DNA from: a bacterium
GTDB lineage: Bacteria; SAR324; NAC60-12
Reading direction: 5' to 3'
NCBI GenBank assembly: GCA_965233585.1
Contig: CBDDTI010000098.1
Location: 1 to 25,199 of the forward strand
Length of the DNA: 25,199 bases
In this document: in pieces, positions 1 to 25,199 of the stretch
Layout: the number at the start of each line of letters is the position of its first letter
Position numbering within the stretch: position 1 is the stretch's first letter
The notes under the pieces: model-generated
Database searches by the model: none
Seen by the model: the letters and a program-made list of their open reading frames with translations, nothing else
Told to the model about the DNA's origin: nothing
Translations under genes and position numbers: made by a program

Positions 1-650
1 CCTCTCCACTCAGGTTCACTCAGGACATCCAGAGGCTGCCCATTGTTTCACCAGAAGACCTTAGAAGAGAGATTTTTGTTTATCGGATTTCTCCTGCTCA
101 TCTGGAGTCTGGGAAGTAAGTTCACCAGAGCATCCTAATCTCGATTTGGTTCAATATGTAAAAATCCATGTAAGCAAAACCCATTATAGAGTATTTATTT
201 ATTTCCTCTGCCAATAGTATGTAAGCCTGATAGTAATTTCAGGTTTCCCACATAAAACCCTGTTTTTGAACGATTTGTCTGAAGTTCACATTTGGTGTGA
301 AAGTGAGGTGTGCAAATAGTGGACCCTATGTTTTCACATATATGAGTGCAAGTTTTGTGTGCCTATAGTAGTCTCTATGTCAAGTTCACTATTTACACAC
401 CCATTGTTTATGTAGTACTGGCACAAAAGTTGTGCCAAATAAATGTGCAAATAAATCCTGCCTTGAAGTACATCAAGGTCATGGTGAGGCAACTAACGCC
501 TGTATAGAAACCGGGTAGCATGAAGCTCAAATGAGATGCTTTCAGCCTGAAAGCATCTGAAAGCAGCTCAAATCATCTCAAATGCATCTGTTTTCATCTC
601 ATTGCAGATGGAAAGCAGCTTGTTGCAATTGAAATGGCATCTGAATGCAG

Positions 651-754
651 CTCAAAGCATCTCATTTCACCTCAATGTAAATTACATTGAGATGCTTTCA
701 GCCTCAAAGCATCTCATTTCACCTCAATGTAAATTACATTGAGATGCTTTCAGT
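651..754 (+). repeat. 52-bp tandem repeat x2 in left TIR, each unit with hairpin CTCAATGTAA-A-TTACATTGAG
   Basis: Units at 651-702 and 703-754 read directly. Confidence 0.9.
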
Positions 755-930
755 CTACATTGAGATGAATTCGGTTCACATCGAGATGAATTCGGTCTAC
801 ATTGAGATGAATTCGGCTTGCATCGAGATGAATTCGGTTTACATCGAGATGAATTCGGTCTACATCGAGATGATTTCAGTCTACATCGAGATGAATTCTG
901 TCTGCATTGAGATGAATTCGGTCTACATTC
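751..930 (+). repeat. 21-bp tandem repeat (consensus CGGTCTACATYGAGATGAATT), 8 units plus a partial, in left TIR
   Basis: Direct reading; produces the spurious SVYIEMN repeat ORF. Confidence 0.93.
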
Positions 931-1031
931 AGCTCGATGCAGTCAGGGTTTTTCACAGACAGAAGAAAAAGGCTTAGTTCAATCTAGATGGTAAATTCTA
1001 ATCAAAAGTTTCTCTCATGTTCCTTATTTAT

Positions 1032-3215
1032 TTATTTCTTTCTCGTCAGCTTAGGATATTTTCTAAACAAAGGATTTTTTACCAGGCGCGGCTTTTTCGT
1101 TTTAACAGTTAATGATTTTCTGTACATAGGGTTTCTCACTAAGCGAGCGGGTTGCGGAATTTCATCAACATCTAGTGCTCCAAGCATAACTCGCGGTTCC
1201 CTTTGAAAAAGTTTCTTGTCTTTTAAAAGTTCCAAACCGATTTTTACGGGTGGTTTCCTTTTCGACAGTTTCTTCCTCAAAGGTTTTACGTTTCGACTTG
1301 AGGGGCCCTCGACAATGTTCAATTTTTCTAGCCTAACCTGAGGTTTGGTTAGAAAAAGTTTCCGATCTTTCAACAGCTCTGAACTTATCTTAATAGGCGG
1401 TTTCTTTTTCTCCTTTGATTGCGCGATATTTTGCGGTTTTTTATCAACGACTAATTTCTCAAGTGCAACTTGCGGTTTCATTCGAAAAAGTTTCTCATCC
1501 TTCAAAAGTTCTACATCTATTTTAACCGGCATGTTAGTTTTCAACAGATTCCTCTCTGCTAAAGTTTTCTTCCCATCAAGTTTGAGGACATTCATCGGAC
1601 TTTTCCTGATACCTAATTTCTTAAGCTCAACTCGCGGTTTCATTCTTAGCAGTTTCCTATCCTTCAAATGTTCCACATTTATTTTGACCGGAGTCTTCTT
1701 TCCCGGTTTCGGCACGTCCGTTTCTGATGACTGCGGCTTCTTCCCATCAAGACTCGTCGCATTTACAGGACCTTCGCTGATATCTAATTTTCCGAGCTCA
1801 ACTCGAGGTCTCTTTCGCAACAGTTTCTCATCTTTCAAAAGATCTACACCGATGTTTACGGGCGAGTTCTTTTTCATTTTTTTTTTCCTTCGGTCTCTAA
1901 CCTTGGCGCCATTATTCCCATTAATTACCATCGACGATGAGTTACCCGAAGGACTTATCCTTCGTTTCTTCTTCCTCCTCTCGTTTTCCAACCAGTCTTC
2001 AGAATCTGTATTTTTTCTCTTACGACTAATGAGACTTATCATAGGTCTTAATCGGGCATATTTTTTCGGCGGTTTTTCCATTAATTTTCCAGACAGAGCG
2101 AGAGGCTGCAAATTGCCCATCTTTTTCCGTTTCCTTACCGTTCCCTGGGAATTCTCAGACCCCATTTCCCTCCTTTTCCTTTTACGATCGATTAAGCTCA
2201 CCGCCGGTTGTGATTGCAAATTATTCTCTCCCTCAATCAGCATTTCTTTCGACTGCTCAGCTTGAGCGTCAATAGAACTTGCGCCGTTTGTTGGTAAGGA
2301 AGCCCTCATTTCCAGTTCGTGTTCTTTAAGAAACGCTTCGTCCACGGAAATTTTTTTCCTAGTCGGTCCTGACTTGGACGAGTCCGCTGGAGATTGACTC
2401 TGATCATCGTTTCCTTTTTTTTTTTTCTTCATCGAGTCCTTTTGCCTCGGTTTGAATGTTTTTTTCCTGGGGGCTTTTTTCAAAGTTTGTTCCGCCAATC
2501 GCCTCTCGTTCGGACTTAATTCGTAACCGTGCTTCAAATGCATATGCTTGTCAAAAAAAGAGAATCGACTGAAGGATTTGTTCGGACAAAAGGGACACGC
2601 TAGTTTATGATTCTCGTCAAGCTTGCTCAGCGAGCTAAAGATTTTTTGCTTTGTACGGATGTAAATGTCCTGATAAGATTCGGGTGTCAATGAGACTTGA
2701 GATGAGGATGGGTTTGCATCTGCGATTGTAGGCTGTACTTCAGGCTCATTTTGCAAAATTGTCCGATGCTGCTGCAGGTGCAGCAGCGGCGGCGGCGGCG
2801 GCGGAGGTAGCGGTTGAGTTAGCTCGTTAATTCCCTCATCAATCGGCGCAAGTTGACTCGGTTCATTTCCCGACACGATGGGAGATGAAGTTGCCGCCGT
2901 GTCCGTCAAAGGAGCTTGTTCATCGTGTGCCAAAGCGCTGTCTAGACCTCCCTCATTCGTCAGGGCCGAATCCTCGTTGGAATTAATAGAAGAGTTTAGG
3001 GTTTTGTTGAAAGTAGTGACAGTCTCACTGACCGTTGGTGATTTGTAGGATTTGTGTTTATTGTACTGAATAGCATTTTCTATGTAATTTGAACCGGTAT
3101 TTAATTGATTTAGCTTTTCCAGTTTATCACCATCGGACAAATTTTTTCGAATTGAAAAGTAAATGCTGCGAGGCACCAGAAACATGCTGGAAACCCCCTC
3201 CCTGAGCTTCCTCAT
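1032..3215 (-). CDS. 727-aa Lys/Arg-rich putative nuclear protein with one C2H2 Zn finger and five C-terminal ~28-aa repeats each containing PxVxL
   Basis: Long ORF; CPFC-x13-HMHLKH; many NLS-like basic runs; repeats like PVKIxxELLKDxKLxxxxPxVxLxKL; AATAAA overlaps the stop. Confidence 0.85.
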   Translation of the reverse strand: MRKLREGVSSMFLVPRSIYFSIRKNLSDGDKLEKLNQLNTGSNYIENAIQYNKHKSYKSPTVSETVTTFNKTLNSSINSNEDSALTNEGGLDSALAHDEQAPLTDTAATSSPIVSGNEPSQLAPIDEGINELTQPLPPPPPPPLLHLQQHRTILQNEPEVQPTIADANPSSSQVSLTPESYQDIYIRTKQKIFSSLSKLDENHKLACPFCPNKSFSRFSFFDKHMHLKHGYELSPNERRLAEQTLKKAPRKKTFKPRQKDSMKKKKKGNDDQSQSPADSSKSGPTRKKISVDEAFLKEHELEMRASLPTNGASSIDAQAEQSKEMLIEGENNLQSQPAVSLIDRKRKRREMGSENSQGTVRKRKKMGNLQPLALSGKLMEKPPKKYARLRPMISLISRKRKNTDSEDWLENERRKKKRRISPSGNSSSMVINGNNGAKVRDRRKKKMKKNSPVNIGVDLLKDEKLLRKRPRVELGKLDISEGPVNATSLDGKKPQSSETDVPKPGKKTPVKINVEHLKDRKLLRMKPRVELKKLGIRKSPMNVLKLDGKKTLAERNLLKTNMPVKIDVELLKDEKLFRMKPQVALEKLVVDKKPQNIAQSKEKKKPPIKISSELLKDRKLFLTKPQVRLEKLNIVEGPSSRNVKPLRKKLSKRKPPVKIGLELLKDKKLFQREPRVMLGALDVDEIPQPARLVRNPMYRKSLTVKTKKPRLVKNPLFRKYPKLTRKK

Positions 3216-4314: not shown

Positions 4315-7300
4315 TTACTGTATTTTCTTACATGGATGTAAATGACATTTTTTAATTTGACTACTTCCCAAAGCTAACGTGCACTTTCCACAAGGCAGCA
4401 CATATCGCTTCGAGTCCATGGCTGAGAGAGCAATTTTCCGTTGGTAAGTGGTGCCAATCCGATGGTTTTTTGACTTTAAATGGTTGAAAGATTTATATAT
4501 CAAACTTGCACTATTCAAGCATTCCTCGTAATCGGCAAAGGACAATTGATTATTGATGCTGCTCTTTTTGAGGCCTTTGCAAATTTTCTTGGTCGAAATT
4601 TTTTTTGTTTTTAAATTTTTGACTGTCATACTATAACATTTCGGTCTCAGTCCAATAAATTCCGTAATTGCGGCTTTTCCTTTCATTTCATCTTTAAAGT
4701 AAAACAGGTGGTTGGCTCTGCTGTTGTCGTACAATTCGTGATCATTTTCGTATTTTGAAAAATCAAACATGTGCTCAATTGACTTTAATTGTTCTATCAA
4801 ATTGTCACATTTGACACTAAATAAAAAGGAGTCTGTGTCTGAGAAACATAATTTTAAATTTTTCCGACCGAAATGCTCTTTAAACTTGTCGTAGGATTGA
4901 TACATAAAAAGTTTGCTCAATTCCAAAATGGCAAATCCAACAGCTAACGGTTTTTTCATTTCAATCGAGTTGGGCTTCTTCATGACTGCTACCAGATCCT
5001 GGTTGATGATTTTAAAATTGGATACGTGCTGACCTATGCATGCTTTTCTTAAACTTTTCTCATCATCACACAAAACAATCTCGATGTAATTTCTGGCGTT
5101 TTCTGAAAAAAAGAGGAGAAAATCATTAAGTCAACATCTTTACAAAAATCATGCAACTTTCTTTTTCATGTTTACCTATGAATTTGCCGAAGGTCGCATT
5201 TGCAAAAAGTTTAAACAGTCGCAATTCGAAATCTGTCTTCGCCTCCGACCTCAATTTTGTAATCTTGGTGATAAAGTTCTTTAGAAAATCCTTCTGGGTG
5301 AATTTGATCGCTCTCCTGATCCTGATCAGCTCGAGTCCACGTTCGAGATAATATTTGAGGTTATCCAACAGAACCACATATTTGCGTCTCGTGTAAAATG
5401 TGGCCAGCAATTTCCTTGAAGAATATCTACGCTTCTTGTAATCTCGATAAGCGTGCTTTCTCAAAAGTTTCCTGTTGAATGGCGATAGATCCTCAAAGCC
5501 TACTGTACCGGTGTACGGGGCCAGAGGAAATTGATCATCCCTTTTGTGATACTTTGCTGGGTAGAAAAGGTCCACCTCGAAAGCGTAGCCAGTCTCGCTC
5601 TGTGTTGGTAAATTTAAAATATCTTTGGCAGACCATGTTCTCAGCTCGTCCTTCTCGATCCACTCGAAATCTCCTACGGGTAATTTAAATGTTTCCATGC
5701 TACCGTAGAGATTATTGGCTGTAAAGAACGGAGGGAAAAAATTAAACTCTGTTTAATTGATTTAGTCCCATAGTTTGTCTTGAAGGAGGAAAATGGAAAA
5801 AAAAAAAAATTTACCATCAACATAGAGTAAATGATCGCCTGGAGATTTCGGATCGTCGCTTCCCCTCGCATGTCTTGTGGCAATAAAACTTTGCCCGCCT
5901 CTTACACCTTTGGTGAAGAACTGTTCCATTTCAGGCTGATCAAACAAATCTAGAGAGCCGGGCGGTTTGCTGTCAAGACGTTTCTCGCTACTCCCTCTCT
6001 CATCCTCGTAAAACATCCGGAGCATAACATCGAACGATAAGCCCGGTATTCCTGTAATTAATTTTCCAAGAGAAAAAAGGATGATTTGGGAATAAGGAAT
6101 TTTTTTTTTTGCACTTCGGAAGAGAAATACTCACCCAGATAATAAACAGGATCCAGCTTAAAGTGTTGAATGACCATTTCTCTGTACCTAGTGAAAATTT
6201 CAGCCAGCAAAATGACGTCTAAGGCGCAATACAAGTTCATGTAATCCTCCATTGTTTTACAGCCGAAAAATTTGAACACATCTTTCCCGTGTTTGTGGTC
6301 TTCAGCGGAGATATGAGTCTCATTTAACCTCGAATAAAATGCCTCTCTTGAAGGAAACTCGCTCACTTTCAACGACTCATATGATGTAAAATGCTCATAG
6401 GCATACACTCCTTTCCTTTTTAAAAGTTTCAATCCGCGAGATTTTTTCCTCAATGGTAATTTGACATACGGCTGGAACTGGCGGAGGATGGGAAAGGTGA
6501 ATGATTTATCCTGACATAAATCTGTCATTAACGAGTCGAGACTGGACGATATGTGCTCCAAAGAGTCTCTGATTTGAAAACGGCCTATGGTGACAGTGCG
6601 ATATTTTTCCTGGTTTCTAGCCATTACTCGTGTAGCGCGCCCCATTTTTTCTATTATCAGATGAATGTCGTATCTAAAAAAGAAAAAAAATCACACATCA
6701 ATTAACACCTTTTTTCCATTCTCCATTCGAAAAAGTATTCTTCCTGCTAAAATTCTTACCCCTGACCATTGTGGAAATAAATGGGAGTTAGATACGGCCC
6801 TTGTCGATGTAGGTTGCAAATAGCATGAGCAGCTTGAATGTTTCCTCCCGACACGTGATCGTGATCCACCACTTTCCTGTACAAACGCGAATGATCATCG
6901 AATTTTTTCTCGCAAATGTGGCAATGGGTAGCTTCTCGGTATTTTCGCCATTGCACGTTTGAAGCCTTGATTTGACCAGTGCTCCGGAAGCGTTGTTTCC
7001 TATTGTTGACTATACTTTCATAACCGCTTAATTTCGATAAAAACACTTCGACAGCATCGTCACCGCTGTAGGTCTCTTGGTAAAAAACGTCACTGTCAGA
7101 ATCTACAAAACAAATGGAAAAGCCACATGCTTTGTGTTTGTTCAACACTTGGCTTGTAGATTTTTCACAGTCACATTTTAATGAGTTTTTGTTGCATTTC
7201 CTGCATACTTTTTCTTTTTGCCTCGAGTCTTCTTCCATGTAGCACTCGAAATCTGCAAATCCAACGACAGGAGCTTTGAAGCCATTTCTTTGTTTGGAAA

Positions 7301-8920
7301 AATTTAAAACGCTTCCCTTGGGAGGGTACACCACTGTTTGTTTATCTTGCTGACATATTTCTTGATGCGAATTTTTCTTCTCTTTAGGGTATTGGTATTG
7401 TCATCTAGCGAGGATGATTTTTTCCCTCTGAGGGTAAAATTTACCCAGAGGAAACAGTTTTGAATGGGTGATTTATTTTCGAGTCGAGCCTCAATTTCCC
7501 TCAAAATGAAAGTGGCCTGCCCTTGCAACATCTCCCAAAACTAGCAAGACTACCCTTCACAATTACCCCAGAGGGTAAAAATTACCCCCACTAGATGACA
7601 ATACCCTTAGAAACAAAATTCATCAGACACACTTCACAATAGTAATGATTGAGTGGATAAGGAGCTTGCTTCAGGCTTTGTTTTCGTCCATTTAAAAAGC
7701 CCCTAATGTTTTTGATGGTAAAAAAATGATGCTCATGGTTCAAACCGTTCAAAGATGAAGACATCTGCGAATGGAACCTTGTCACACCTGCTTGGCCTTG
7801 GCAAGATAAAAGTTCACGGTCACTTTTAATTAACAAAACATTTAAAACATTTTTATATTTTTTCTGTCTCCCTCTTATGTTTGAAAAAGTGTCCAATACA
7901 CAAATTTCACTCTCACTTTCGAAGAACACTCGAATTGTCAGCGGAAGGTGATTGTTTCTTTTGACAAACTTGTTAATCTGCTTAAAATTTAAAGGGAATT
8001 TAATGCCACTCAAATTAAACTTTCTAATGTACTTGTCTGGGAAGTGGTCACAGTGCTTGATGCTGACAGTGGCTGGCCATAAATGTCTTATTACACAATA
8101 CAAGAAATTCTTCTCATCATATGTGGTTTGCCAATGCACACTCTTGCACTTCAACAAGTACTTAGGCACAATGACAGAGTTAGAGTTCATATTTTTTTCT
8201 TGGGAGGTGCTCCTTTTTCTCCTCTAATTTCTCATCAACTCTCTCTGTCTCTCGGTCGGCTTTCAATCTTCACGTTGAACCGGGCTTGGTTGCAACAAAA
8301 CAAACATCATAGAGTAAGATGTCACAAGCCTCAAGATTTTCAAAACGCCAACCTGACCCGCGTGTCAAAAGATCCTCTTCCCTGGCCAAGGCACCTTGCA
8401 ACAATCGACTGATTTTTCTCTGGATACGCCTATCTCCTTCTAGTTCATTGAACACCAATCCTTTGCTGCGAAGGCTAAAAGTGTCGTTATCTGAGCTCTT
8501 GACTGGGCCTCCCTCTGATGATAAGTCAGAAATTTCGTAGCTGGCAGATATGACTATGCTGGCACGGAAAACGGTTCGTGTCATCAATTCCGTTTTTATC
8601 AGGTTGAAAATTTCTTTCAGAGATTTTTTTGAGTTGCAAAAATCAGCTAATGTCTGTTTTTCCGATGACAGGTCCTTTGTAAAAATGCAAACTCGATCAT
8701 TGATAGCTGATTTTTTTCGAAACACTAAAAGATCCTCATGTTCAGTTGACACGTGAAACCTTAAATCTTTTCTTTTGCTAAAGCCATCAGAGCAAAAGGA
8801 GCAAAAAAATCTCTGTTTACTTGAGCTTGTGGTGCTTTCACTGTGTTGATGAGATAATAAATGCCTGTCCAGGGCTCTTTTTCTTGAAAAGGAAATGTTG
8901 CACAAATGACATTTCTTCAT
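4315..8920 (-). CDS. polB: Protein-primed family B DNA polymerase, spliced. Segments: 8920-~8306, ~8223-7605, 7381-6760, 6673-6135, 6051-5815, 5718-5176, 5102-4315
   Basis: N-terminal two C2H2 fingers and GSGW; ExoI FADFEC; CHIC...DHDH...H.ICN Zn insert; joins rebuild HNGQG|YDIH (ExoII), YYL|GIPGLSFD, YVD|ANNLYG (motif A), KLFANATFGKFI|EN (motif B); FSDTDS (motif C). The junction at 8224-8305 is uncertain. Confidence 0.93.
5103..5175 (-). other. Spliceosomal intron in polB (73 bp)
   Basis: G|GTAAAC...TTTTTTCAG|; join gives FGKFIENARNY in frame. Confidence 0.9.
5719..5814 (-). other. Spliceosomal intron in polB (96 bp)
   Basis: G|GTAAAT...CTTTACAG|; join rebuilds catalytic YVDANNLYG. Confidence 0.93.
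6052..6134 (-). other. Spliceosomal intron in polB (83 bp)
   Basis: G|GTGAGT...TAATTACAG|; join gives DPVYYLGIPGLSFDVML. Confidence 0.92.
6674..6759 (-). other. Spliceosomal intron in polB (86 bp)
   Basis: GG|GTAAGA...T-rich tract TTAG|; join rebuilds ExoII FHNGQGYDIHLI. Confidence 0.93.
7387..7606. mobile_element. 220-bp MITE (PIF/Harbinger-Tourist-like) inserted in polB
   Basis: TTA duplicated at 7384-7386 and 7607-7609; TIRs GGGTATTG(GTATTG)TCATCTAG / CTAGATGACAATACCC; removal restores CEVC-x12-HQEIC. Confidence 0.88.
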
Positions 8921-13586: not shown

Positions 13587-14106
13587 TTTCTGAAAACCTG
13601 TTGTGTAATTCCATTATTTCATGATGTATGTCAGTTAAAATAAAGTCCTGTGTAACCTTCTGTTTTTACATGTGATGGACAAATACAAAATGAAATATAC
13701 ATCTTTCTCTCATCATCAAAAAAGTTTATTATTGATATTCATTTCTGAAAACCTGTTGTGTAATTCCATTATTTCATGATGTATGTATGTTAAAATAAAT
13801 TCCTGTGTAACCCTCTGTTTTATATGTGATAGACAAATACAAAATGAAATATACATCTTTCTCTCATCATCAAAAAAAGTTTATTATTGATATTCCTTTC
13901 TGAAAACCTGTTGTGTAATTCCATTATTTCAAGATGTATGTATGTTAAAATAAATTCCTAACCCTCTGTTTTATATGTGATAGACAAATACAAAATGAAA
14001 TATACATCTTTCTCTCATCATCAAAAAAGTTTATTATTGATATTCCTTTCTGAAAACCTGTTGTGTAATTCCATTATTTCATGATGTATGTATGTTAAAA
14101 TAAATT
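13587..14106. repeat. ~155-bp tandem repeat, ~3.4 copies
   Basis: TTTCTGAAAACCTGTTGTGTAATTCC starts at 13587, 13742, 13897 and 14047. Confidence 0.93.
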
Positions 14107-14773: not shown

Positions 14774-16108
14774 CTACTTCTCATCAGCTCTGATTACTTG
14801 GCCTTTTTCTTCGATTTTGATTCCAGAGTTGAAGATGGTGTAAGACAACAAATAGATAGGGTGATCGTGTGCTGATTTGAAGCCGAATTCAGCGTCCAAT
14901 TTCCCTGACTCGTCTGGATGGATATGGTATCCGTTGCACCGATCCGGAGTCAGGTCTGCGGTTAGAAAGCACCTTCCTGCCTTAAAAACCTCTTTCGTAA
15001 TACCGCAAGAATGATTCGATATCCCGAATCCGATACTGTCATACAGATGCCTGTACAAATCAATGAAATTGTCAGTGTCAAAGTCTGGCTGGAAAGGTTT
15101 GGGGAAAACGCATTGCCCGTTCTTGAACAAATTGAATCGATTTAAATCGAAATGTTGAAAATTGAATGGGTTTTTGTCGCTGCTGTGCGTCATGGCTTCA
15201 TTATGAATCATGACGAAAATGACTTGTTTAGGCAGGAGTCCGGAAGCCACGTTTGTCAACGAATAGGAGGTAACCCCTGGAGGTATTACAAATTGCTTCA
15301 ACTGAGTTCCTTTATACGGAATGTAGCAAGGCTCCTGAGTCAGTTTTAATTTGAATTGGTTCCTGAGCTGCTCTGTTGGTAAGACTTTTCTCATTTTCAA
15401 CTTCAAATCTTTTAAAATTATGTTAAAAGATTTGGAAGGCTCGTTGTGAAGAAGGCCAAATTTCGGGTTATTTCTCACGAGTTTGACTTTCAGATCCACA
15501 TTGGGTGGTAAATATTTATCAGTGTACATGATATCTGCCCCCAACCTGCTGCAGAAGTAGACTTTTTTTCCATTCTCTATCAGGCTTCTACGTTTTATCA
15601 AGTCAGCATCGTCAGCAGGGTCGTGTTTGTCTATTTGATTTTCATCTTCAACAAAGTAGCCCTCTGCTCTCAATTGACATTCTTTGCTCTCTCGATCATA
15701 AGAAAGCTCGGTTTGAATAAAATTTCTAAAAGGATAAGAGTTTGCCGTGCTTAAATCGCAGACTTGTGTTCCATTTATGTATATTTCCACTTGGCTGAAC
15801 AGATTGTGCGCAAAATTATTCGCCAAATACACTTTGTCAGTTGCCTTCACTTCCTTTTCATCATCTGTTTTGACAACAAAATGCCCAATCAGTCTGCTTT
15901 GGTCCAAAATGACGGAGCATTCTTCATCCCGTGGAATAACGAATTCAATCGGGCCGGAGTTGGTGACACTCGTAACACTGCTATAAATCACATCTCTCCC
16001 ATCCAAGAGACTAGTATCCTGTCCCAGCGGAGCATGAAGATCGAGAGCTTGTTCTATCAAATCGTCCTGCTCAACGGCAAGACCGCCGATACCGCCTTTT
16101 TCAGACAT
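14774..16108 (-). CDS. Major capsid protein 1 (Polinton-type double jelly-roll)
   Basis: GPIEFVIP, NLFSQVEIYING, YPFR, KYLPPNVDLKVKLVRN, LPKQVIF, NPFNFQHF and DLTPD, as in Polinton MCPs. Confidence 0.88.
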   Translation of the reverse strand: MSEKGGIGGLAVEQDDLIEQALDLHAPLGQDTSLLDGRDVIYSSVTSVTNSGPIEFVIPRDEECSVILDQSRLIGHFVVKTDDEKEVKATDKVYLANNFAHNLFSQVEIYINGTQVCDLSTANSYPFRNFIQTELSYDRESKECQLRAEGYFVEDENQIDKHDPADDADLIKRRSLIENGKKVYFCSRLGADIMYTDKYLPPNVDLKVKLVRNNPKFGLLHNEPSKSFNIILKDLKLKMRKVLPTEQLRNQFKLKLTQEPCYIPYKGTQLKQFVIPPGVTSYSLTNVASGLLPKQVIFVMIHNEAMTHSSDKNPFNFQHFDLNRFNLFKNGQCVFPKPFQPDFDTDNFIDLYRHLYDSIGFGISNHSCGITKEVFKAGRCFLTADLTPDRCNGYHIHPDESGKLDAEFGFKSAHDHPIYLLSYTIFNSGIKIEEKGQVIRADEK

Positions 16109-16191: not shown

Positions 16192-17532
16192 CTAATATTT
16201 GAGTTTCGTTACTTGGAGATTTTTATCGATAACAATTCCGGAATTGTAGAAAGCATAAGAGATCAAAGTGTATGAATCATTAAGGGGCCTTGAAAAAGTC
16301 AAATCCAATTCAAGATTTCCGGCAACGGATGGGTGATGGTGGAAAGAATTACATTTGTCAGGGGTCAAATCAAATGCCAGAATTGTATACCCTTTTCTGA
16401 AATTCTTTAGCGTTACCAGGTTTTTGGTGCCTACGTTGCTTTGAAAATGCTCGTATAATTCAACATAATTACCGCTCGCAAAGTCACATTCGATGGGTTT
16501 TGGGAGTAGCGGTCTTCCGTTGTTTTTCAAATTAACACTTGATATATATGCGTGTTCAAAATAGAAATGTCTCGCATCATACTTCCTGGTCAAAAGCTTA
16601 CTCTTTACAAGCACGAAAATAATCTGATTAGGCAGAATTTGATCATTTATATGGTTCGCACTGTAGACGGTCGAATTTTCAGGAATATGGTGATGTATTA
16701 GCCGACTGTCTTTGTAAGGTAGGAAACAAGGTTCCTGAAGTAACTTAGTCTGAAACCGGTTGCGCACGCGTTCAGAGGCAAGCACCTTTCTCATGTGAAG
16801 CTTCAAATCTTTCAAAACAAAATTGAAAGTTTTGTCCGGTACTTCTTGATCAATGCCAAATGTCGGATTAAACCTTGACAATTTCATTTTGATCTCAACG
16901 TTCGGAGGTAAATACTTGTCCGTGTGTAAAATATCGGCCGGTATGGTCGAATTGAAATATACCTTTTTTCCATCCAAAATCATCTCGTGGAACTGAGTCC
17001 TATCTTTGCAATTATGAATTCTTCTAGCCTCCTCTGTGAACATCCAATAGCAATACTCCCTATGATCTTTGTAATAGCCTTCTGCTTTGCCTACATTATT
17101 GATGACATTCCAATGGTAGGAGAGAGAGGAATCAATATAATGCTTGAAGGGATAGGAGACTGGTGCACTTAAATCACAAACTTGTGTTCCGTTCAGATAG
17201 ATTTCAATTTGTGAGAACAAGCAGGCTCCCCAGTGATGCGATAACGTGACATTATCGTTTGATGTTACTGGGGTGCCGTCCTTATCCAGCACAACAAAGT
17301 GCCCCTCTAATCTCGCTTGATTGAGAATAAAAAAACATTCAGGGTCTGGAGGGATTTGAAACTCAACACCTTCAAGACCTTCAACAGGAGAAACACTGCT
17401 GTAGCACACGCTACGACCCTTTATCAGATCGTTTTCAGCTTCGAGAGGAGTGTGAAGATCTAGACTTTTCCCCTTCAACTCGTTGATTTCAACATTTAAT
17501 CCTCCCACGCCTGCGCGCATCAACGATGCCAT
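16192..17532 (-). CDS. Major capsid protein 2 (paralogue of MCP1)
   Basis: Collinear motifs LFSQIEIYLNGTQVCDLS, YPFK, TDKYLPPNVEIKMKL, LKDLKLHMRKVL, FDLTPDKCN; ATG at 17532 or 17520. Confidence 0.86.
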   Translation of the reverse strand: MASLMRAGVGGLNVEINELKGKSLDLHTPLEAENDLIKGRSVCYSSVSPVEGLEGVEFQIPPDPECFFILNQARLEGHFVVLDKDGTPVTSNDNVTLSHHWGACLFSQIEIYLNGTQVCDLSAPVSYPFKHYIDSSLSYHWNVINNVGKAEGYYKDHREYCYWMFTEEARRIHNCKDRTQFHEMILDGKKVYFNSTIPADILHTDKYLPPNVEIKMKLSRFNPTFGIDQEVPDKTFNFVLKDLKLHMRKVLASERVRNRFQTKLLQEPCFLPYKDSRLIHHHIPENSTVYSANHINDQILPNQIIFVLVKSKLLTRKYDARHFYFEHAYISSVNLKNNGRPLLPKPIECDFASGNYVELYEHFQSNVGTKNLVTLKNFRKGYTILAFDLTPDKCNSFHHHPSVAGNLELDLTFSRPLNDSYTLISYAFYNSGIVIDKNLQVTKLKY

Positions 17533-18086
17533 TTTCTCAAGCAAATGACGTGACTATTAGCAATATAAAACTGAGCTGCAAAATTGATCTCCTAGATGAA
17601 ACAACGATCTCCTTAAATAAGGAGGCGGACACAAGATCTCACGGGAATTTTACGGTGGTTAAAAAAAGATATGTCTACATTATTTTCAAAAAGCGGAAAA
17701 ACAAGCAGAGCTACCACGTGAACATCACCAAGGTTCCATCTTCAGCAGAGATAATGTCCTCGATTGACCAATTGAGCCGCATAATAACTAACAACTTTAT
17801 CGTGAAGTCTTATAACATTGAAAATATGACATGTTCTTTTGATGCAGGCTTTAACATTCCACTGATCGAGGTATTTGATCAATTGGAGAAAAAAAGCTTT
17901 GTCAAGAAAGCCCGATTCAACCCGGAAAGATTTCCTGGAATATTTGTGACTTTCGAATTCAACACAATTCTATTGTTTTCATCTGGAAAAATGGTAATAA
18001 TTGGAGCAAACGACATGCAAAGTGTGGAGGATAGCTTAGACAAAATCTTGCACTTTTTGAAACCTTATAAAGCACTGCAAATATAA
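17526..18086 (+). CDS. TATA-binding protein (TBP)-like, 186 aa, core domain only
   Basis: Second repeat IENMTCSFD..F.IPL...FNPERFPGI...TILLFSSGKMVIIGA matches the TBP signature; first repeat (ISNIKLS...YIIFKK...HVNITKV) is degenerate. Confidence 0.9.
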   Translation: MPFSQANDVTISNIKLSCKIDLLDETTISLNKEADTRSHGNFTVVKKRYVYIIFKKRKNKQSYHVNITKVPSSAEIMSSIDQLSRIITNNFIVKSYNIENMTCSFDAGFNIPLIEVFDQLEKKSFVKKARFNPERFPGIFVTFEFNTILLFSSGKMVIIGANDMQSVEDSLDKILHFLKPYKALQI

Positions 18087-18153: not shown

Positions 18154-18903
18154 ATGCCTGCTCCAAATGAGCGGAGCTCCGGCTGTGAGCATCGGCATAC
18201 GGTGGATGAAATATCTTGCGGGGATTTGGTCTGTATAGACTGCGGTCTTGTACTGGATAAAATCTACCTCTACCCTATGAAGGCTAATCGTGCGACCTGG
18301 AGAGAGAGAATGGCATCTGAGTCCTACTACGACAATAATAAAAAAAATGATCGCATTCATGTGCAAAACTGCATAGATATGATTGAACATATGTGCGGTA
18401 AATGTAACATTGACAGCGAAGATGTCAAAGCTTGCATATTGAAGAAATGGCAGGATTTAGGAAAAATATACAGAAAGAATGTTTGTCAGGAGAGTCTGAT
18501 GCTAGTTTGCATGTACATGACGTTAATCGAAATGAAAGTGCCACGCCCGTTGAATCATTTATGCACCCAGACAAACATAGACCCGAAAAATGTGTGGAAC
18601 TATCTCAAAGCCAACAACTCATTTTACAGGCCGAATTTAATGTGCGAATATTTTCTGCATGACATGAACTTACCATACAAAGACATTGAGCAAATAAGAT
18701 CATTGGTCAAAAAGTTTGAATCAAAGTACGTTTTTTCTCAAAAAACCTTGATTGCGTCGAGCGCCTATATCTATTTAAGAAATCGAGACGCAACTGAGAA
18801 AAAGGCAAAGATCAGCATAAGTCAATTGGCAAAACAATTAGGCGTAAGCTCAACGGCCATGTACAGGTGCATTAAGAAAATTGAATCATCTAGCAGAGCA
18901 TGA
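18154..18903 (+). CDS. TFIIB-like transcription initiation factor, 249 aa
   Basis: Zn ribbon CEH...GDLVCIDCGLVL; reader-like TWR; two cyclin-fold-like repeats (ESLMLVCMY...VPRPL; KTLIASSAY...ISISQLAKQLGVS). Confidence 0.87.
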   Translation: MPAPNERSSGCEHRHTVDEISCGDLVCIDCGLVLDKIYLYPMKANRATWRERMASESYYDNNKKNDRIHVQNCIDMIEHMCGKCNIDSEDVKACILKKWQDLGKIYRKNVCQESLMLVCMYMTLIEMKVPRPLNHLCTQTNIDPKNVWNYLKANNSFYRPNLMCEYFLHDMNLPYKDIEQIRSLVKKFESKYVFSQKTLIASSAYIYLRNRDATEKKAKISISQLAKQLGVSSTAMYRCIKKIESSSRA

Positions 18904-19334
18904 ATTTCCACCGAGGTGCGCCTATTCAACAGGGTGCAGGTTTAGGTTCTATCTTCAGTGGGCTTTTTAGAACGCTGGTGCCTGTAGCTAAGACTGCGGC
19001 AAAAACTGTAGGCAAAATTGCGAAAAGCAAAGGAGTCAGGTCAGCAGGAAGATACTTGAAGAAGGAGGCCACTCGAGCAGCTCTTGACTCAGCTTTAGAG
19101 GCGCTGGAGGGGAAAAAAGTCGGCACCGCGGCAAAAAGGAGACTAAAAACTGCCACGAAAAATATTCTGCTAGCAGGCAAGGGAGTTGAAGCTCCTTATG
19201 CAAGGGAGAGAGGCACCAAGAGGAAGAATGTCAAATTCCAAATGGGAAATGCCAAAAGAAGAAGAAAAAAAATAGAACAGAAACCGCTTTTTGACGACGA
19301 CGATGACCACTACGACGAAGACGACGATTACTAA
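18900..19334 (+). CDS. 144-aa basic protein with N-terminal QxGxGLG plus amphipathic helix (Polinton-type putative core protein)
   Basis: IQQGAGLGSIFSGLFRTLVP, Lys/Arg/Ala-rich body, acidic tail. Confidence 0.8.
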   Translation: MNFHRGAPIQQGAGLGSIFSGLFRTLVPVAKTAAKTVGKIAKSKGVRSAGRYLKKEATRAALDSALEALEGKKVGTAAKRRLKTATKNILLAGKGVEAPYARERGTKRKNVKFQMGNAKRRRKKIEQKPLFDDDDDHYDEDDDY

Positions 19335-20409
19335 AGAGGAGTTTATGGATGCTTACGCATCACCAGGAACACCTTTGGCCTTTTCATCGCCTTACCGTGT
19401 TTACAAACATTTCCAGGGGGCCATACCGTTGAAGACTATTAAAAAATGGATGCACGGCTTGGACAGCTACACATTGCACAAACAAGCAAGAGCGCCCAGA
19501 CCGAGAAACCCTACCTACGCCTACAACAAGAGGTATCAGTTTCAAATCGACTTGATCGAACTAGGGCGGTTAGCCGAGGCCAATGATGGGCATCGCTTCT
19601 TGTTAACGGTGATTGACATATTTACCAGATTTGCTTTCGTAGAGCCCCTCAAAAACAAAACAGCACCGGCTTTCTTGGAGGGATTCAAAGCAATCATGTC
19701 AAGAGCTGAGCAATTTCCGCAAAAAATTTTAGCTGACAGAGGTTCCGAGATAAAGAACAAATTGTTCAGAGACTACTGTCGGCAAAATAACGTTCGTCTT
19801 CTGCACAGCGACAACTTTGTGCATGCACCATTCGTGGAAAGATTTAACCGGACGTTAAAAACACTGATGTACAAATACATGACGGCAAAAGAGACGGATA
19901 GATTCATCGACGTGCTGCAACCGTTGGTGAACACCTATAATTTACGTACACATAGGATGATTGGTATGTCACCTGCCCAGGCCGAAAATGAAGAAAACGC
20001 TCATTTGATTAGAAGGAAACAGGAGGAGCGTTATTCGGAAAAATCCAGACGACCACCCAGATTTAAGAAAGGACAGACCGTGAGAGTGAGTAAACTGAAG
20101 GGACAATTTGATAAGGGATATGATGAGCAATTCCTTGAGGAGATTTATAAGATTAAAAGAGTATTCACACGCCTGCCCATTCCCACCTACGAGTTAGAGA
20201 CGTTGGATGGGGATGAGACGATTGAGGGGAATTTTTACGGAAACGAATTAACTTTAACGGAAGTGCCGAAAGTCTTTAAGATTGAAAAGATTCTGAAAAG
20301 GAGAAAGGACAAAACTAGCGGACAAAAGCTGGTTTACGTGAAGTGGAAGGGATATAGAAACCCGAGTTGGATTCCAGAGCGAGATGTGATAAATTTGAAC
20401 CAATCGTGA
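19303..20409 (+). CDS. Retroviral-like (rve) DDE integrase with C-terminal chromodomain
   Basis: FQIDL, LTVIDIFTRFA, ADRGSE, VERFNRTLK; chromo-like FKIEKILKRR...YVKWKGY..PSWIP; ATG at 19303 or 19345. Confidence 0.96.
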   Translation: MTTTTKTTITKEEFMDAYASPGTPLAFSSPYRVYKHFQGAIPLKTIKKWMHGLDSYTLHKQARAPRPRNPTYAYNKRYQFQIDLIELGRLAEANDGHRFLLTVIDIFTRFAFVEPLKNKTAPAFLEGFKAIMSRAEQFPQKILADRGSEIKNKLFRDYCRQNNVRLLHSDNFVHAPFVERFNRTLKTLMYKYMTAKETDRFIDVLQPLVNTYNLRTHRMIGMSPAQAENEENAHLIRRKQEERYSEKSRRPPRFKKGQTVRVSKLKGQFDKGYDEQFLEEIYKIKRVFTRLPIPTYELETLDGDETIEGNFYGNELTLTEVPKVFKIEKILKRRKDKTSGQKLVYVKWKGYRNPSWIPERDVINLNQS

Positions 20410-23308: not shown

Positions 23309-23862
23309 GATTGAACTAAAACTTTTTCTTCAGTCTGTGATACCGGACTGCATCGAGCTGAATGTAGACCGAATTCATCTCGATGCAAACCGAATTCATC
23401 TCAATGTAGACTGAAATCATCTCGATGTAGACCGAATTCATCTCGATGTAAACCGAATTCATCTCGATGTAAACCGAATTCATCTCAATGCAAGCCGAAT
23501 TCATCTCAATGTAGACCGAATTCATCTCGATGTGAACCGAATTCATCTCAATGTAGACTGAAAGCACCTCAATGTAATTTACATTGAGGTGAAATGAGAT
23601 GCTTTGAGGCTGAAAGCATCTCAATGTAATTTACATTGAGGTGAAATGAGATGCTTTGAGGCTGAAAGCATCTCAATGTAATTTACATTGAGGTGAAATG
23701 AGATGCTTTGAGCTGCATTCAGATGCCATTTCAATTGCAACAAGCTGCTTTCCATCTGCAATGAGATGAAAACAGATGCATTTGAGATGATTTGAGCTGC
23801 TTTCAGATGCTTTCAGCCTGAAAGCATCTCATTTGAGCTTCATGCTACCCGGTTTCTATACA
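23309..23862 (-). repeat. Right terminal inverted repeat (~554 bp), with 9 units of the 21-mer (23361-23560) and 3 units of the 52-mer (23557-23712)
   Basis: Reverse complement of 501-984 with one extra unit in each array. Confidence 0.95.
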
Positions 23863-25199
23863 ACAGTTATTGCATATGAGGCCTCTGAACACACCTTACC
23901 TCTATTGTTTGTCCCACGCTTGTGAGGACCTTAGGAGGCAGAATGTTTAACCCTGCCTTTCCTTCAAGGACAGCGGGAAAGAGTAACTAGCTTTTTAACT
24001 GTGTGAGTTCTGTCAAGCACGCAATATGAGTGTGACTTTATCACCTGTGTCATGATTTTGTTAAAAAGCAGTAACTTACATTTCACATGAGGTGTTCTCT
24101 CTTTCAGAGGAATTTGGACAATCAAGGAGAACAGTCATGAAGATTCTTCTACTTTTTTGCACTTTATGGAGTTCCATATACATTGATCCTTCTGATGGGG
24201 GAACTTTTAGTAAGTATAATTACTAAGTTAGATTCTTCTTTCCTTGCTTCATTGGTTGAATAATATGTTTGGGCCATGAGCAGGATAAGCCTATAGCCAT
24301 TTCCATGATGCAATGCCACGTTAGGTCCCCAAGGGTACCAAGAATGAAATGAACTGGATGTAATGAAAAAACTGCCATTGAAAGGCTGGGGATCGAACCC
24401 GGAACATGATTGCATTTCATGCAAAAAATGCAATAATTATTTCTTTAGCTACCAAACACTGTGAAGTCAACAGATGGCTCTGTAAGTCAGAAGGCTAAAT
24501 CAGAAAGGTTTAATCCTTGATGATTTCAAGGTGTTAGACTGATTTTTTACACTCTCATTTAGTTTTAATACTTTTGGCATATACTTTTCAAGCAAAATTA
24601 AAATGTTTTTGACATCTCCCTATCAGAATAACTTCTGTAGGATTGATTATCTCTTCAAAATCATTTCTGAAGTCACATGGCTTCATATAAAATATTCCAA
24701 AATGTGCATGCATTCAATAAGGCTGTGCAGGGTGAAACTTTGCCAAAAAATTAATAAGCATGCATGCAGGTTTATTAGATAGGACATAGTAGTTGGATGG
24801 TTGTGAGAGTATTTTTTACGTTATGGATATTCAAATTCCCTGGGATTTGAAAGAAATTCTGACTCCCACCAGAAAGTAATTTTTCCCATCTTATAGAGCA
24901 ATCTTCCATTTTCCAGTCCCCTAGGGGATGGTATATTACTACATTAATTGTTGTTACTGATAGCATTTTCCACAGGTATATATTTTTTTTGACTTAATAC
25001 CTGCCAAAATTTTGCACCTGGAGTAATATATATTTCCCAAAATGGCCGGCATTTTCTTCCCGTGGTAAAAATTTCCACCAAAGGGGAATCGTATTTCCAA
25101 TAGGCAATTTCCCTTCTGGAATGAAGCGAGGGGTGTAGGGAACTTGCATGAGGGAATTATGATTCCCCGAGGGTGGAGGCTTTCTCCAAGGGAACAAAA

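Follow-up and report, generated by a model that had tools for sequence, protein, structure and literature searches.

A PxVxL-type repeat array on a zinc-finger protein of a Maverick/Polinton-like element: a candidate multivalent ligand of HP1

Persistence, integration-site choice, silencing and reactivation of Maverick/Polinton elements are poorly understood, and beyond polymerase, integrase, ATPase and capsid most of their genes lack an assigned role. The stretch of DNA studied here (the window) is the entire contig CBDDTI010000098.1 (C98, 25,199 nucleotides) of GCA_965233585.1, a 747-contig, 12-Mb assembly placed in the bacterial lineage SAR324. It carries a virus-like, eukaryote-type element of ~23 kb that is Maverick/Polinton-like (adintovirus-like), and one gene of this element encodes a protein of 727 amino acids (aa), P0001, in which a C2H2 zinc finger is followed by a long basic tail containing five copies of a PxVxL motif. 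What might such a tail bind? PxVxL-type ligands of the heterochromatin protein HP1 are already well known, and the original prediction for this locus, drawn from the letters of the window, was that the five motifs serve as HP1 ligands. Our tentative reading, to which we give a probability of roughly 0.4, is that the tail of P0001 may be a disordered, multivalent array of ligands for the HP1 chromoshadow domain on an element-encoded zinc-finger protein. We infer both the HP1 partner and the multivalency.

The repeat units of the P0001 tail

The five PxVxL sequences named in the original prediction match the translated open reading frame (ORF) exactly (Table 1). With the central Val of each motif numbered as position 0, the five units align over a conserved core of 31 aa that is followed by an unalignable linker; their spacing is 57, 54, 44 and 49 aa, and the description of the repeats as ~28 aa long has to be corrected. 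A sixth PxVxL, PAVSL, lies outside the repeats. All five units agree at eleven of the 31 positions of the core (P-20, I-17, L-12, K-11, D-10, K-8, L-7, P-2, V0, L+2 and L+5), and at nine of these eleven the codons vary synonymously. Nucleotide identity between the cores of different units is 57-75% (35-71% at third codon positions), and Tandem Repeats Finder (TRF) detected no repeat in the tail DNA. This core identity and the silence of TRF suggest that the five units are old, and the synonymous variation in 9/11 invariant columns argues that their residues have been held by selection and not by recent copying. The telling signal is that the key residues are unchanged while the DNA has diverged. 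In 20000 shuffles of the 287-aa tail, the mean number of PxVxL matches was 0.295 and the maximum 4, versus 5 observed, and the longer pattern PxVxLx[KR][LIVM] was observed 4 times versus a shuffle mean of 0.021; both comparisons are to be read with the five copies taken as duplicates and not as independent events.

Conservation extends well beyond the motif. Outside PxVxL, Lys is found at +4 in four of the five units, and Leu at +5, Ile or Val at +7 and Leu at -7 are found in all five. The original prediction held that the variable positions of the repeats drift while PxVxL is kept. The motif is indeed retained in 5/5 units, but a block upstream of it, L-K-D-x-K-L, is retained equally. Since PxVxL accounts for only 3 of the 11 invariant columns it is not preferentially kept, and within P0001 it is conserved no better than the L-K-D-x-K-L block. 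LKDE, also pointed out in the prediction, does occur in two units (1827-1838 and 1494-1505), while the remaining three read LKDR, LKDR and LKDK. The SUMO consensus that had been read into LKDE is limited to these 2/5 units and relatives read MDKKL or LKQDG at the same place, so a SUMO site was discarded.

The array lies in a part of P0001 that is predicted to be unstructured. In an AlphaFold2 model run with a 21-sequence family alignment, residues 440-727 have a predicted local distance difference test score (pLDDT) of 36-49 and no secondary structure. A folded repeat domain was set aside because no structure is predicted in the tail. The linker that joins the zinc finger to the array (residues 251-450) is mostly below pLDDT 50, with one predicted helix at residues 293-304. 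The tail as a whole, ~290 aa, has a net charge of +51 and consists of 29% Lys plus Arg. From the Lys/Arg clusters alone, we infer that P0001 may be located in the nucleus. The most conserved feature of the tail is its C-terminal end, NP[FVLM][YF]-x2-3-[YF]PKL with a few basic residues, which is common to the full-length family members examined; distant subfamilies are without the rest of the tail features, yet they retain the [YF]PKL end.

Comparison with known HP1 ligands and recurrence in relatives

The binding motif of Drosophila HP1a was redefined experimentally in a 2025 study ('HP1a Access Codes', PMC12526061), of which excerpts are used here. According to these excerpts, the signature comprises a hydrophobic residue at -2, Val or Ile at 0, an aliphatic residue at +2 and a basic residue at +4, with 3-6 basic residues from -4 to +4. 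Hydrophobic residues are favored at -7, -5, -1, +5 (about 80%) and +7 (about 60%), acidic residues are excluded at -6, -3, -1, +1 and +5, and aromatic residues at -4 and +6. The same excerpts place the HP1a-binding motifs in disordered regions and name XNP and HP5 among the partners, HP5 using two motifs redundantly. P0001 resembles these ligands in its alternating hydrophobic residues at -2, 0 and +2 amid Lys and Arg, its basic +4, its hydrophobic +5 and its predicted disorder. The -2/0/+2 rule, here P-x-V-x-L, holds in 5/5 window units and the basic +4 in 4/5 (Ala in unit 5), and the disordered context is matched by the position of the array within residues 440-727, which are unstructured in an AlphaFold2 model built on a shallow alignment. 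P0001 and its relatives differ from these ligands in their tandem arrays of 5-12 copies, which are not described in the excerpts of PMC12526061.

A similar comparison can be made with KAP1/TRIM28. The core of the window units, P-[RQ]-V-x-L-[EGK]-K, is close to the crystallized HP1 box of KAP1, given as P486-R487-V488-x-L490-E491-R492 in the portion of PMC12126490 used here. Units 3 and 4 of the window read P-Q-V-x-L-E-K, and because KAP1 has E491 the acidic +3 in these two units is compatible with a proven human ligand. In both proteins basic residues stand ahead of the proline, the motif lies outside folded domains, and the setting is DNA-directed and zinc-finger-associated (a silencing system in the case of KAP1). 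The differences are equally clear. The single box of KAP1 contrasts with five in P0001 and twelve in one relative. As an RBCC/TRIM protein of the host, KAP1 is recruited by KRAB zinc-finger proteins, whereas finger and boxes are joined on one small element-encoded protein in P0001. Finally, HP1 binding is proven for KAP1, while P0001 is a candidate ligand. A further point of comparison is the strand-plus-helix (SSH) of INCENP, for which the available part of PMC11116813 indicates that a PxVxL/I strand may need an adjoining conserved element for stable binding. The P0001 motif is also accompanied by a second conserved block, L-K-D-x-K-L, but this block is N-terminal to the strand whereas the extra element of INCENP is a helix C-terminal to it.

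We then aligned 20 homologous motif copies from seven lineages. The tallies at -2 (Pro in 17/20, Ala in 3/20), 0 (aliphatic in 20/20, with 16 Val, 3 Ile and 1 Leu) and +2 (aliphatic in 20/20) are circular, because the copies were chosen by their -2/0/+2 pattern. Positions +4, +5 and +7 are free of this selection criterion, and they are basic in 18/20, hydrophobic in 20/20 and hydrophobic in 13/20 copies, respectively. An acidic residue at -1 or +5 occurs in 0/20 copies. The same core recurs in lineages with only 24-35% overall identity. Pro at -2, Val or Ile at 0, Leu at +2, Lys or Arg at +4 and Leu at +5 are what the copies have in common across lineages, and it is these positions that hardly vary in the extended HP1a signature.

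The most telling array was found in a sister lineage of the same assembly, represented by contigs C593 and C608, which has about twelve units of 23 aa whose sequence is unlike that of the window units and which read P-T-[VI]-K-[LV]-x-K in each case. TRF resolves the array DNA into 10.6 copies of a 69-bp unit with 90% identity, indicating that this array is young, and 12/12 of its motif copies pass the full signature. The C593 tail lies in a separate frame after a frameshift and the C608 tail is truncated at the contig end. Among metagenomic relatives, full and core matches number 6 and 12 in P0025 and 2 and 5 in P0007, and a single full match is present in each of P0009 and P0032. As background, the assembly's 7196 other ORFs yield 0.104 full matches per 1000 aa, with only 3 ORFs having at least 2. 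These differently built arrays share Pro or Ala at -2, Val or Ile at 0, Leu at +2, Lys or Arg at +4 and hydrophobic residues a few positions upstream, which is the published signature.

What the array may do

P0001 is best explained as an accessory protein of the integrating, Maverick/Polinton-like virus element. Its N-terminal domain and C2H2 finger would most likely attach it to DNA or else to a partner specific to the element; as pure conjecture, the target might perhaps be the 20-21-bp sub-repeats found in the terminal repeats of the element. The basic disordered tail would act as a platform for short linear motifs, each unit presenting a strand-forming motif, K-L-x3-K-P-x-V-x-L-x-K-L-x-I. 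Each copy of the motif would be a ligand for the peptide cleft of an HP1 chromoshadow-domain dimer, and one molecule of P0001 could bind several HP1 dimers simultaneously. Together with the chromo-like domain of the integrase, this could couple the element or the protein to H3K9-methylated chromatin. On present data, roles in tethering or targeting, in self-silencing (latency) and in titration of HP1 are indistinguishable.

Comparable arrangements exist in other elements. LANA of gammaherpesviruses and EBNA1 are chromatin or episome tethers of DNA viruses, and the chromodomain integrases of chromoviruses and Mavericks target heterochromatin. What P0001 would share with these proteins is the combination of an element-encoded DNA-binding module with a module that binds host chromatin. 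The parallel in the window lies in the sub-repeat arrays of the terminal repeats beside the gene and in the chromo-like integrase. LANA and EBNA1 differ from P0001 in that they have no sequence relationship to it. The rate of evolution is also of note in this context. The P0001 family is the fastest-evolving gene of the element, with 28-33% identity in the N-terminal part only, while its neighbors (the 118-aa protein, the ATPase, the C-terminal part of the polymerase, the integrase and the first capsid gene) are 54-77% identical. This fast evolution fits a host-interface protein.

Several observations weigh against the HP1 reading. The claim that the motifs are HP1 ligands is supported by the extended pattern (K+4, L+5, I/V+7) and the unstructured tail, but all rules of the signature are satisfied by only 1/5 window units (unit 4); the rules are derived from Drosophila and may not be those of the host. 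Units 1 and 2 are disqualified by Glu at +1. The stretch from -4 to +4, which should contain 3-6 basic residues, contains only 2 in unit 3 and likewise in unit 5, and the latter also has Glu at -3 and is without a basic +4. The window units are the poorest match to the signature among the multi-copy lineages. In addition, P-20, I-17, L-12, K-11, D-10 and K-8 are equally invariant and unexplained by HP1 binding, and the conserved unit exceeds the 15-residue length of the HP1 motif. The alignment of 21 sequences behind the model of an unstructured tail is shallow over the tail, and the circular tallies described above belong in this list as well.

The distribution of the motif in the family points in the same direction. 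Conservation in homologues, which the original prediction had made a test of its claim, was found in the C593/C608, P0025, P0007, P0009 and P0032 lineages, but the motif is absent from the tail in 8/8 copies of the C382 type, a sister subfamily, and in all 29 copies of two distant subfamilies of the same assembly, and C246, C58 and P0022 have a single copy with Ala at -2. Because of these absences, the PxVxL motif is dispensable for the family. In the motif-less lineages the repeated short elements are different ones, NEPLSKLRR and KLTVDEILKQDGKLFKLRKNPFY among them; in the latter the upstream half is as in the window unit, but NPFY stands in place of PxVxL. Recurrence alone proves nothing, since unrelated folded-repeat proteins show it too. 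An RCC1-like protein in the assembly has 5 PxVxL in folded repeats, and a TPR protein in the assembly has 5 full-signature matches (8 by a regular expression for the core plus position +5). A search of the assembly with the chromoshadow profile PF01393 gave 0 matches, but the control was equally silent and this result is uninformative.

The same pattern could instead serve a partner other than HP1, with each unit acting as a docking strand and the array controlling shuttling, turnover or assembly. Candidates include a CRM1-type export signal, a calcineurin PxIxIT-like site, an APC/C D-box (RxxLxxL), and the element's own integrase or capsid. We regard such a partner as rather unlikely. CRM1 export signals are spaced hydrophobic-x-hydrophobic-xx-hydrophobic-x-hydrophobic, and V0, L+2, L+5 and I/V+7 give this spacing in 5/5 window units. 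In the C593/C608 array, however, +5 is Ser in 9/12 units while P-2, V/I0, L+2 and K+4 are kept, and this Ser argues against the export-signal spacing for the core shared between the arrays. Arg at -1 in units 1, 2 and 5 creates the RxxLxxL of a D-box, but position -1 can be R, Q, K, V, L or T, and a D-box was set aside because R-1 is not conserved. A PP1 RVxF site was set aside since the aromatic residue is absent. A partner other than HP1 is favored by the conserved positions from -20 to -8, which HP1 does not explain, and by the over-prediction of short motifs, the plain PxVxL pattern matching over 50% of the proteome according to the excerpts of PMC12526061. Against it stand Val at 0 in 16/20 copies and a basic residue at +4 in 18/20, both of which the HP1 signature predicts. 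To our knowledge, neither the preference for Val at 0 nor the basic +4 is predicted by export-signal, calcineurin or D-box motifs.

It is also conceivable, though in our view unlikely, that the tail is a genome-condensing or virion-core polypeptide in which the PxVxL is incidental. The repeats would then form a charge-and-hydrophobic pattern for DNA packing or capsid lining, and the protein would be an analogue of the basic core proteins of adenoviruses; this explanation is compatible with HP1 binding. The net charge and Lys/Arg content of the tail agree with it, the gene always adjoins those for a putative packaging ATPase and a small membrane-anchor-like protein, and the element carries double jelly-roll capsid genes. 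Moreover, the motif-less subfamilies retain the basic repetitive tail and the NPxY...YPKL end, suggesting that the common function of the tail is not PxVxL. Charge leaves unexplained, however, the invariant Pro, Val and Leu with their synonymous variation, as well as the convergence of different repeat units on the same seven-residue core. The repeats could finally have no specific function and have arisen neutrally, by replication slippage in a low-complexity tail that evolves fast, which we consider very improbable. Within this fast-evolving gene no part is less conserved than the tail, the type and number of repeats differ in every lineage, and two single-base deletions have already disrupted the sister copy of the gene on contig C212. 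In P0003, a public fragment with 83% identity, a comparison by eye shows changes at 4 of 30 key positions (-2, 0, +2, +4, +5 and +7 of each unit), which is near the overall divergence. Yet the window units are old, with no TRF repeat and a third-position identity of 35-71%, and still have 11 invariant columns, 9 of them with synonymous changes; slippage also fails to account for the same core in lineages that share only 24-35% identity.

Taking the HP1 reading one step further, the clade might encode its own KAP1-like adaptor, in which a sequence-specific anchor, made up of the N-terminal domain and the zinc finger, is joined to a cassette of 5-12 HP1-docking motifs that can evolve, giving a switch for latency or heterochromatin homing. 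This extension is speculative and we think it doubtful. Under such a scheme, HP1 condensates would be nucleated or hijacked by the cassette on the DNA of the element itself, the switch would act together with the chromodomain integrase, and lineages would tune it by expanding, contracting or swapping the array. A literature search judged from titles found no report joining Polinton or Maverick elements with PxVxL or an HP1-binding protein, and likewise, judged from titles, no published precedent was found for a PxVxL-type tandem array of 5-12 copies on a Maverick/Polinton protein of an unannotated family. Papers that mention both Polintons and heterochromatin protein 1 are, to judge from their titles, reviews or work on unrelated subjects. 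If P0001 is a multivalent HP1 ligand, it would be a concrete molecular link between Mavericks/Polintons and heterochromatin, and the emerging 'grammar' of HP1 partners, in which valency controls condensate behavior, would gain a viral example. Sister elements with 0, 1, 5 or 12 copies in one host genome constitute a natural experiment on the role of the motif.

The protein family, the element and its setting

Counting inward from the left terminal inverted repeat, the gene for P0001 comes first, and its transcription runs outward (Table 1). The upstream 118-aa gene has its stop in overlap with the P0001 start, and the gene order is constant: polymerase, ATPase, 118-aa protein, zinc-finger gene. 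Pfam has no match to P0001 at E<=0.01. In an exhaustive HMMER search of 1.84 billion representatives, the family comprised 31 proteins in public data, and the public relatives of P0001 all come from ENA metagenome contigs. A look-up of sequencing runs gave five entries from two studies, none listed with RNA. Scans of viral, metagenome and genome contig collections found no relatives, and a word-indexed homologue search with the tail gave no match. Within the assembly, the tail is matched only by the window itself and by the sister copy on C212, in which the gene is 99.2% identical and carries the two deletions mentioned above. The 17 codon differences between the window and C212 are too few for a selection test.

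Table 1. Positions of the features discussed in the text, in the numbering of the window. Residue ranges refer to P0001, and signed positions to the central Val of each motif.
Feature	Position	Strand	Details	Basis
Gene for 727-aa protein (P0001)	1032-3215	-	uninterrupted ORF	ORF list, translation
Three-helix N-terminal domain, residues 16-57	3045-3170	-		AlphaFold2, family alignment
Single C2H2 zinc finger and flanking helices, residues 178-250	2466-2684	-		alignment, AlphaFold2
Lys/Arg-rich linker, residues 251-450	1866-2465	-	several KRKRR-type clusters; stray PAVSL at 2193-2207	
Unit 1 core, residues 451-481	1773-1865	-	PRVEL 1794-1808; E+1, K+4, L+5, I+7	
Unit 2 core, residues 508-538	1602-1694	-	PRVEL 1623-1637; E+1, K+3, K+4, L+5, I+7	
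Unit 3 core, residues 562-592	1440-1532	-	PQVAL 1461-1475; E+3, K+4, L+5	
Unit 4 core, residues 606-636	1308-1400	-	PQVRL 1329-1343; sole full-signature unit	
Unit 5 core, residues 655-685	1161-1253	-	PRVML 1182-1196; most degenerate; E-3, A+4	
C-terminal module NPMY ... NPLF-RK-YPKL, residues 695-723	1047-1133	-		alignment
Left terminal inverted repeat	494-947		about nine 21-bp sub-repeats at 735-928	inverted-repeat search, TRF
Right terminal inverted repeat	23343-23869		about ten 21-bp sub-repeats at 23362-23577	inverted-repeat search, TRF
Capsid-type paralogue, first (44% identical to the adjacent second)	14774-16108	-	modeled	
Capsid-type paralogue, second	16192-17532	-		
TBP-like gene	17526-18086	+		Pfam
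TFIIB-like gene	18154-18903	+		Pfam
Integrase, rve core and chromo-like C-terminus	19303-20409	+		Pfam rve 37.2 bits

The zinc finger of the original prediction is supported. Its ligands, C207, C210, H224 and H229 (C-x2-C-x13-H-x4-H), are invariant in 10 family members, and AlphaFold2 models the region as a beta-beta-alpha unit with pLDDT 90-97. A helix C-terminal to the finger is conserved across the family. In the N-terminal domain, helices are predicted at residues 16-25, 29-40 and 44-57 (pLDDT 67-87), and M11, L13, P15, Y19, N39 and Y44-I45-E46 are invariant in the family alignment. A Foldseek comparison of the P0001 model with the PDB gave nothing at E<=0.001, with weak rows to the fingers of Kaiso at E of about 4-8. 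In the ESM Atlas, the N-terminal part scored at most 0.86, the hints being of C2H2 type, and the tail had no usable match.

The setting of the gene is that of a repeated element of eukaryotic type. The capsid protein of the window element has 64 matches across the same assembly, and 43 ORFs in it are homologous to the N-terminal part of the zinc-finger protein. Given these numbers, the bin evidently absorbed eukaryotic DNA, much of it multi-copy. The terminal inverted repeats of the window element are about 450 bp long and 94-98% complementary. Arrays of 20-21-bp sub-repeats are present in 6/7 contigs examined, the window included, and they have about 8-20 units that are often grouped as 61-63-bp triplets, with a sequence specific to each subfamily. 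In contigs C382, C530, C246, C401 and C58, the sub-repeat array lies directly outside the homologous gene; no such array was detected beside the C593 copy. The terminal sub-repeats may be iterons, arrays of sites at which a protein of the element binds.

The chromodomain integrase and private transcription factors to which the original prediction had referred are encoded in the element, the former as an rve integrase that ends in a chromo-like segment and the latter as proteins resembling TBP and TFIIB. The Chromo match of the integrase reaches 23.5 bits, under the Pfam cut-off of 25.1, and a search with the chromodomain returned 9 close relatives that are all integrases, two of them annotated with PF00385. 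The TBP-like protein matches Pfam TBP with 59.7 bits, and the TFIIB-like protein has a zinc ribbon of 18.4 bits (below cut-off) together with C-terminal helix-turn-helix matches. Both genes are kept in all related elements mapped, and we found no report, judging from titles, that unites Polinton, 'TATA-binding protein' and TFIIB. The first capsid-type paralogue (444 aa) gave an AlphaFold2 model with pLDDT 76.9 that is a double jelly-roll capsid and matches capsid proteins of adomaviruses, adintoviruses, virophages and giant viruses with E down to 1e-24. Compared with PDB sequences, the capsid and protease-like ORFs had no match or insignificant matches only. The protease-like ORF is without database support, and the assignment of the packaging ATPase is putative, being based on a weak Pfam match. 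Distant-subfamily elements (for example on contigs C328 and C82) have one capsid-type gene only in a tblastn map.

The protein-primed family-B polymerase is recognized in pieces (PF03175, 27.5 bits; cut-off 25.8). Its gene at 4315-8190 on the minus strand consists of at least 5 ORFs in differing frames with gaps of ~110-360 bp, and these gaps could be short introns or frameshifts. In the C212 copy, which is 99% identical, the first and last polymerase pieces are in the same layout as in the window. Between the gene blocks of the window, a 155-bp tandem repeat occupies 13587-14106 with 3.4 copies at 95% identity; this stretch is AT-rich (30% GC) and without an ORF of at least 100 aa. Contigs C328, C224 and C212 each carry two or three copies of the element, in tandem or nested, and on C212 the copy that is 99.2% identical to the window adjoins copies of a distant subfamily.

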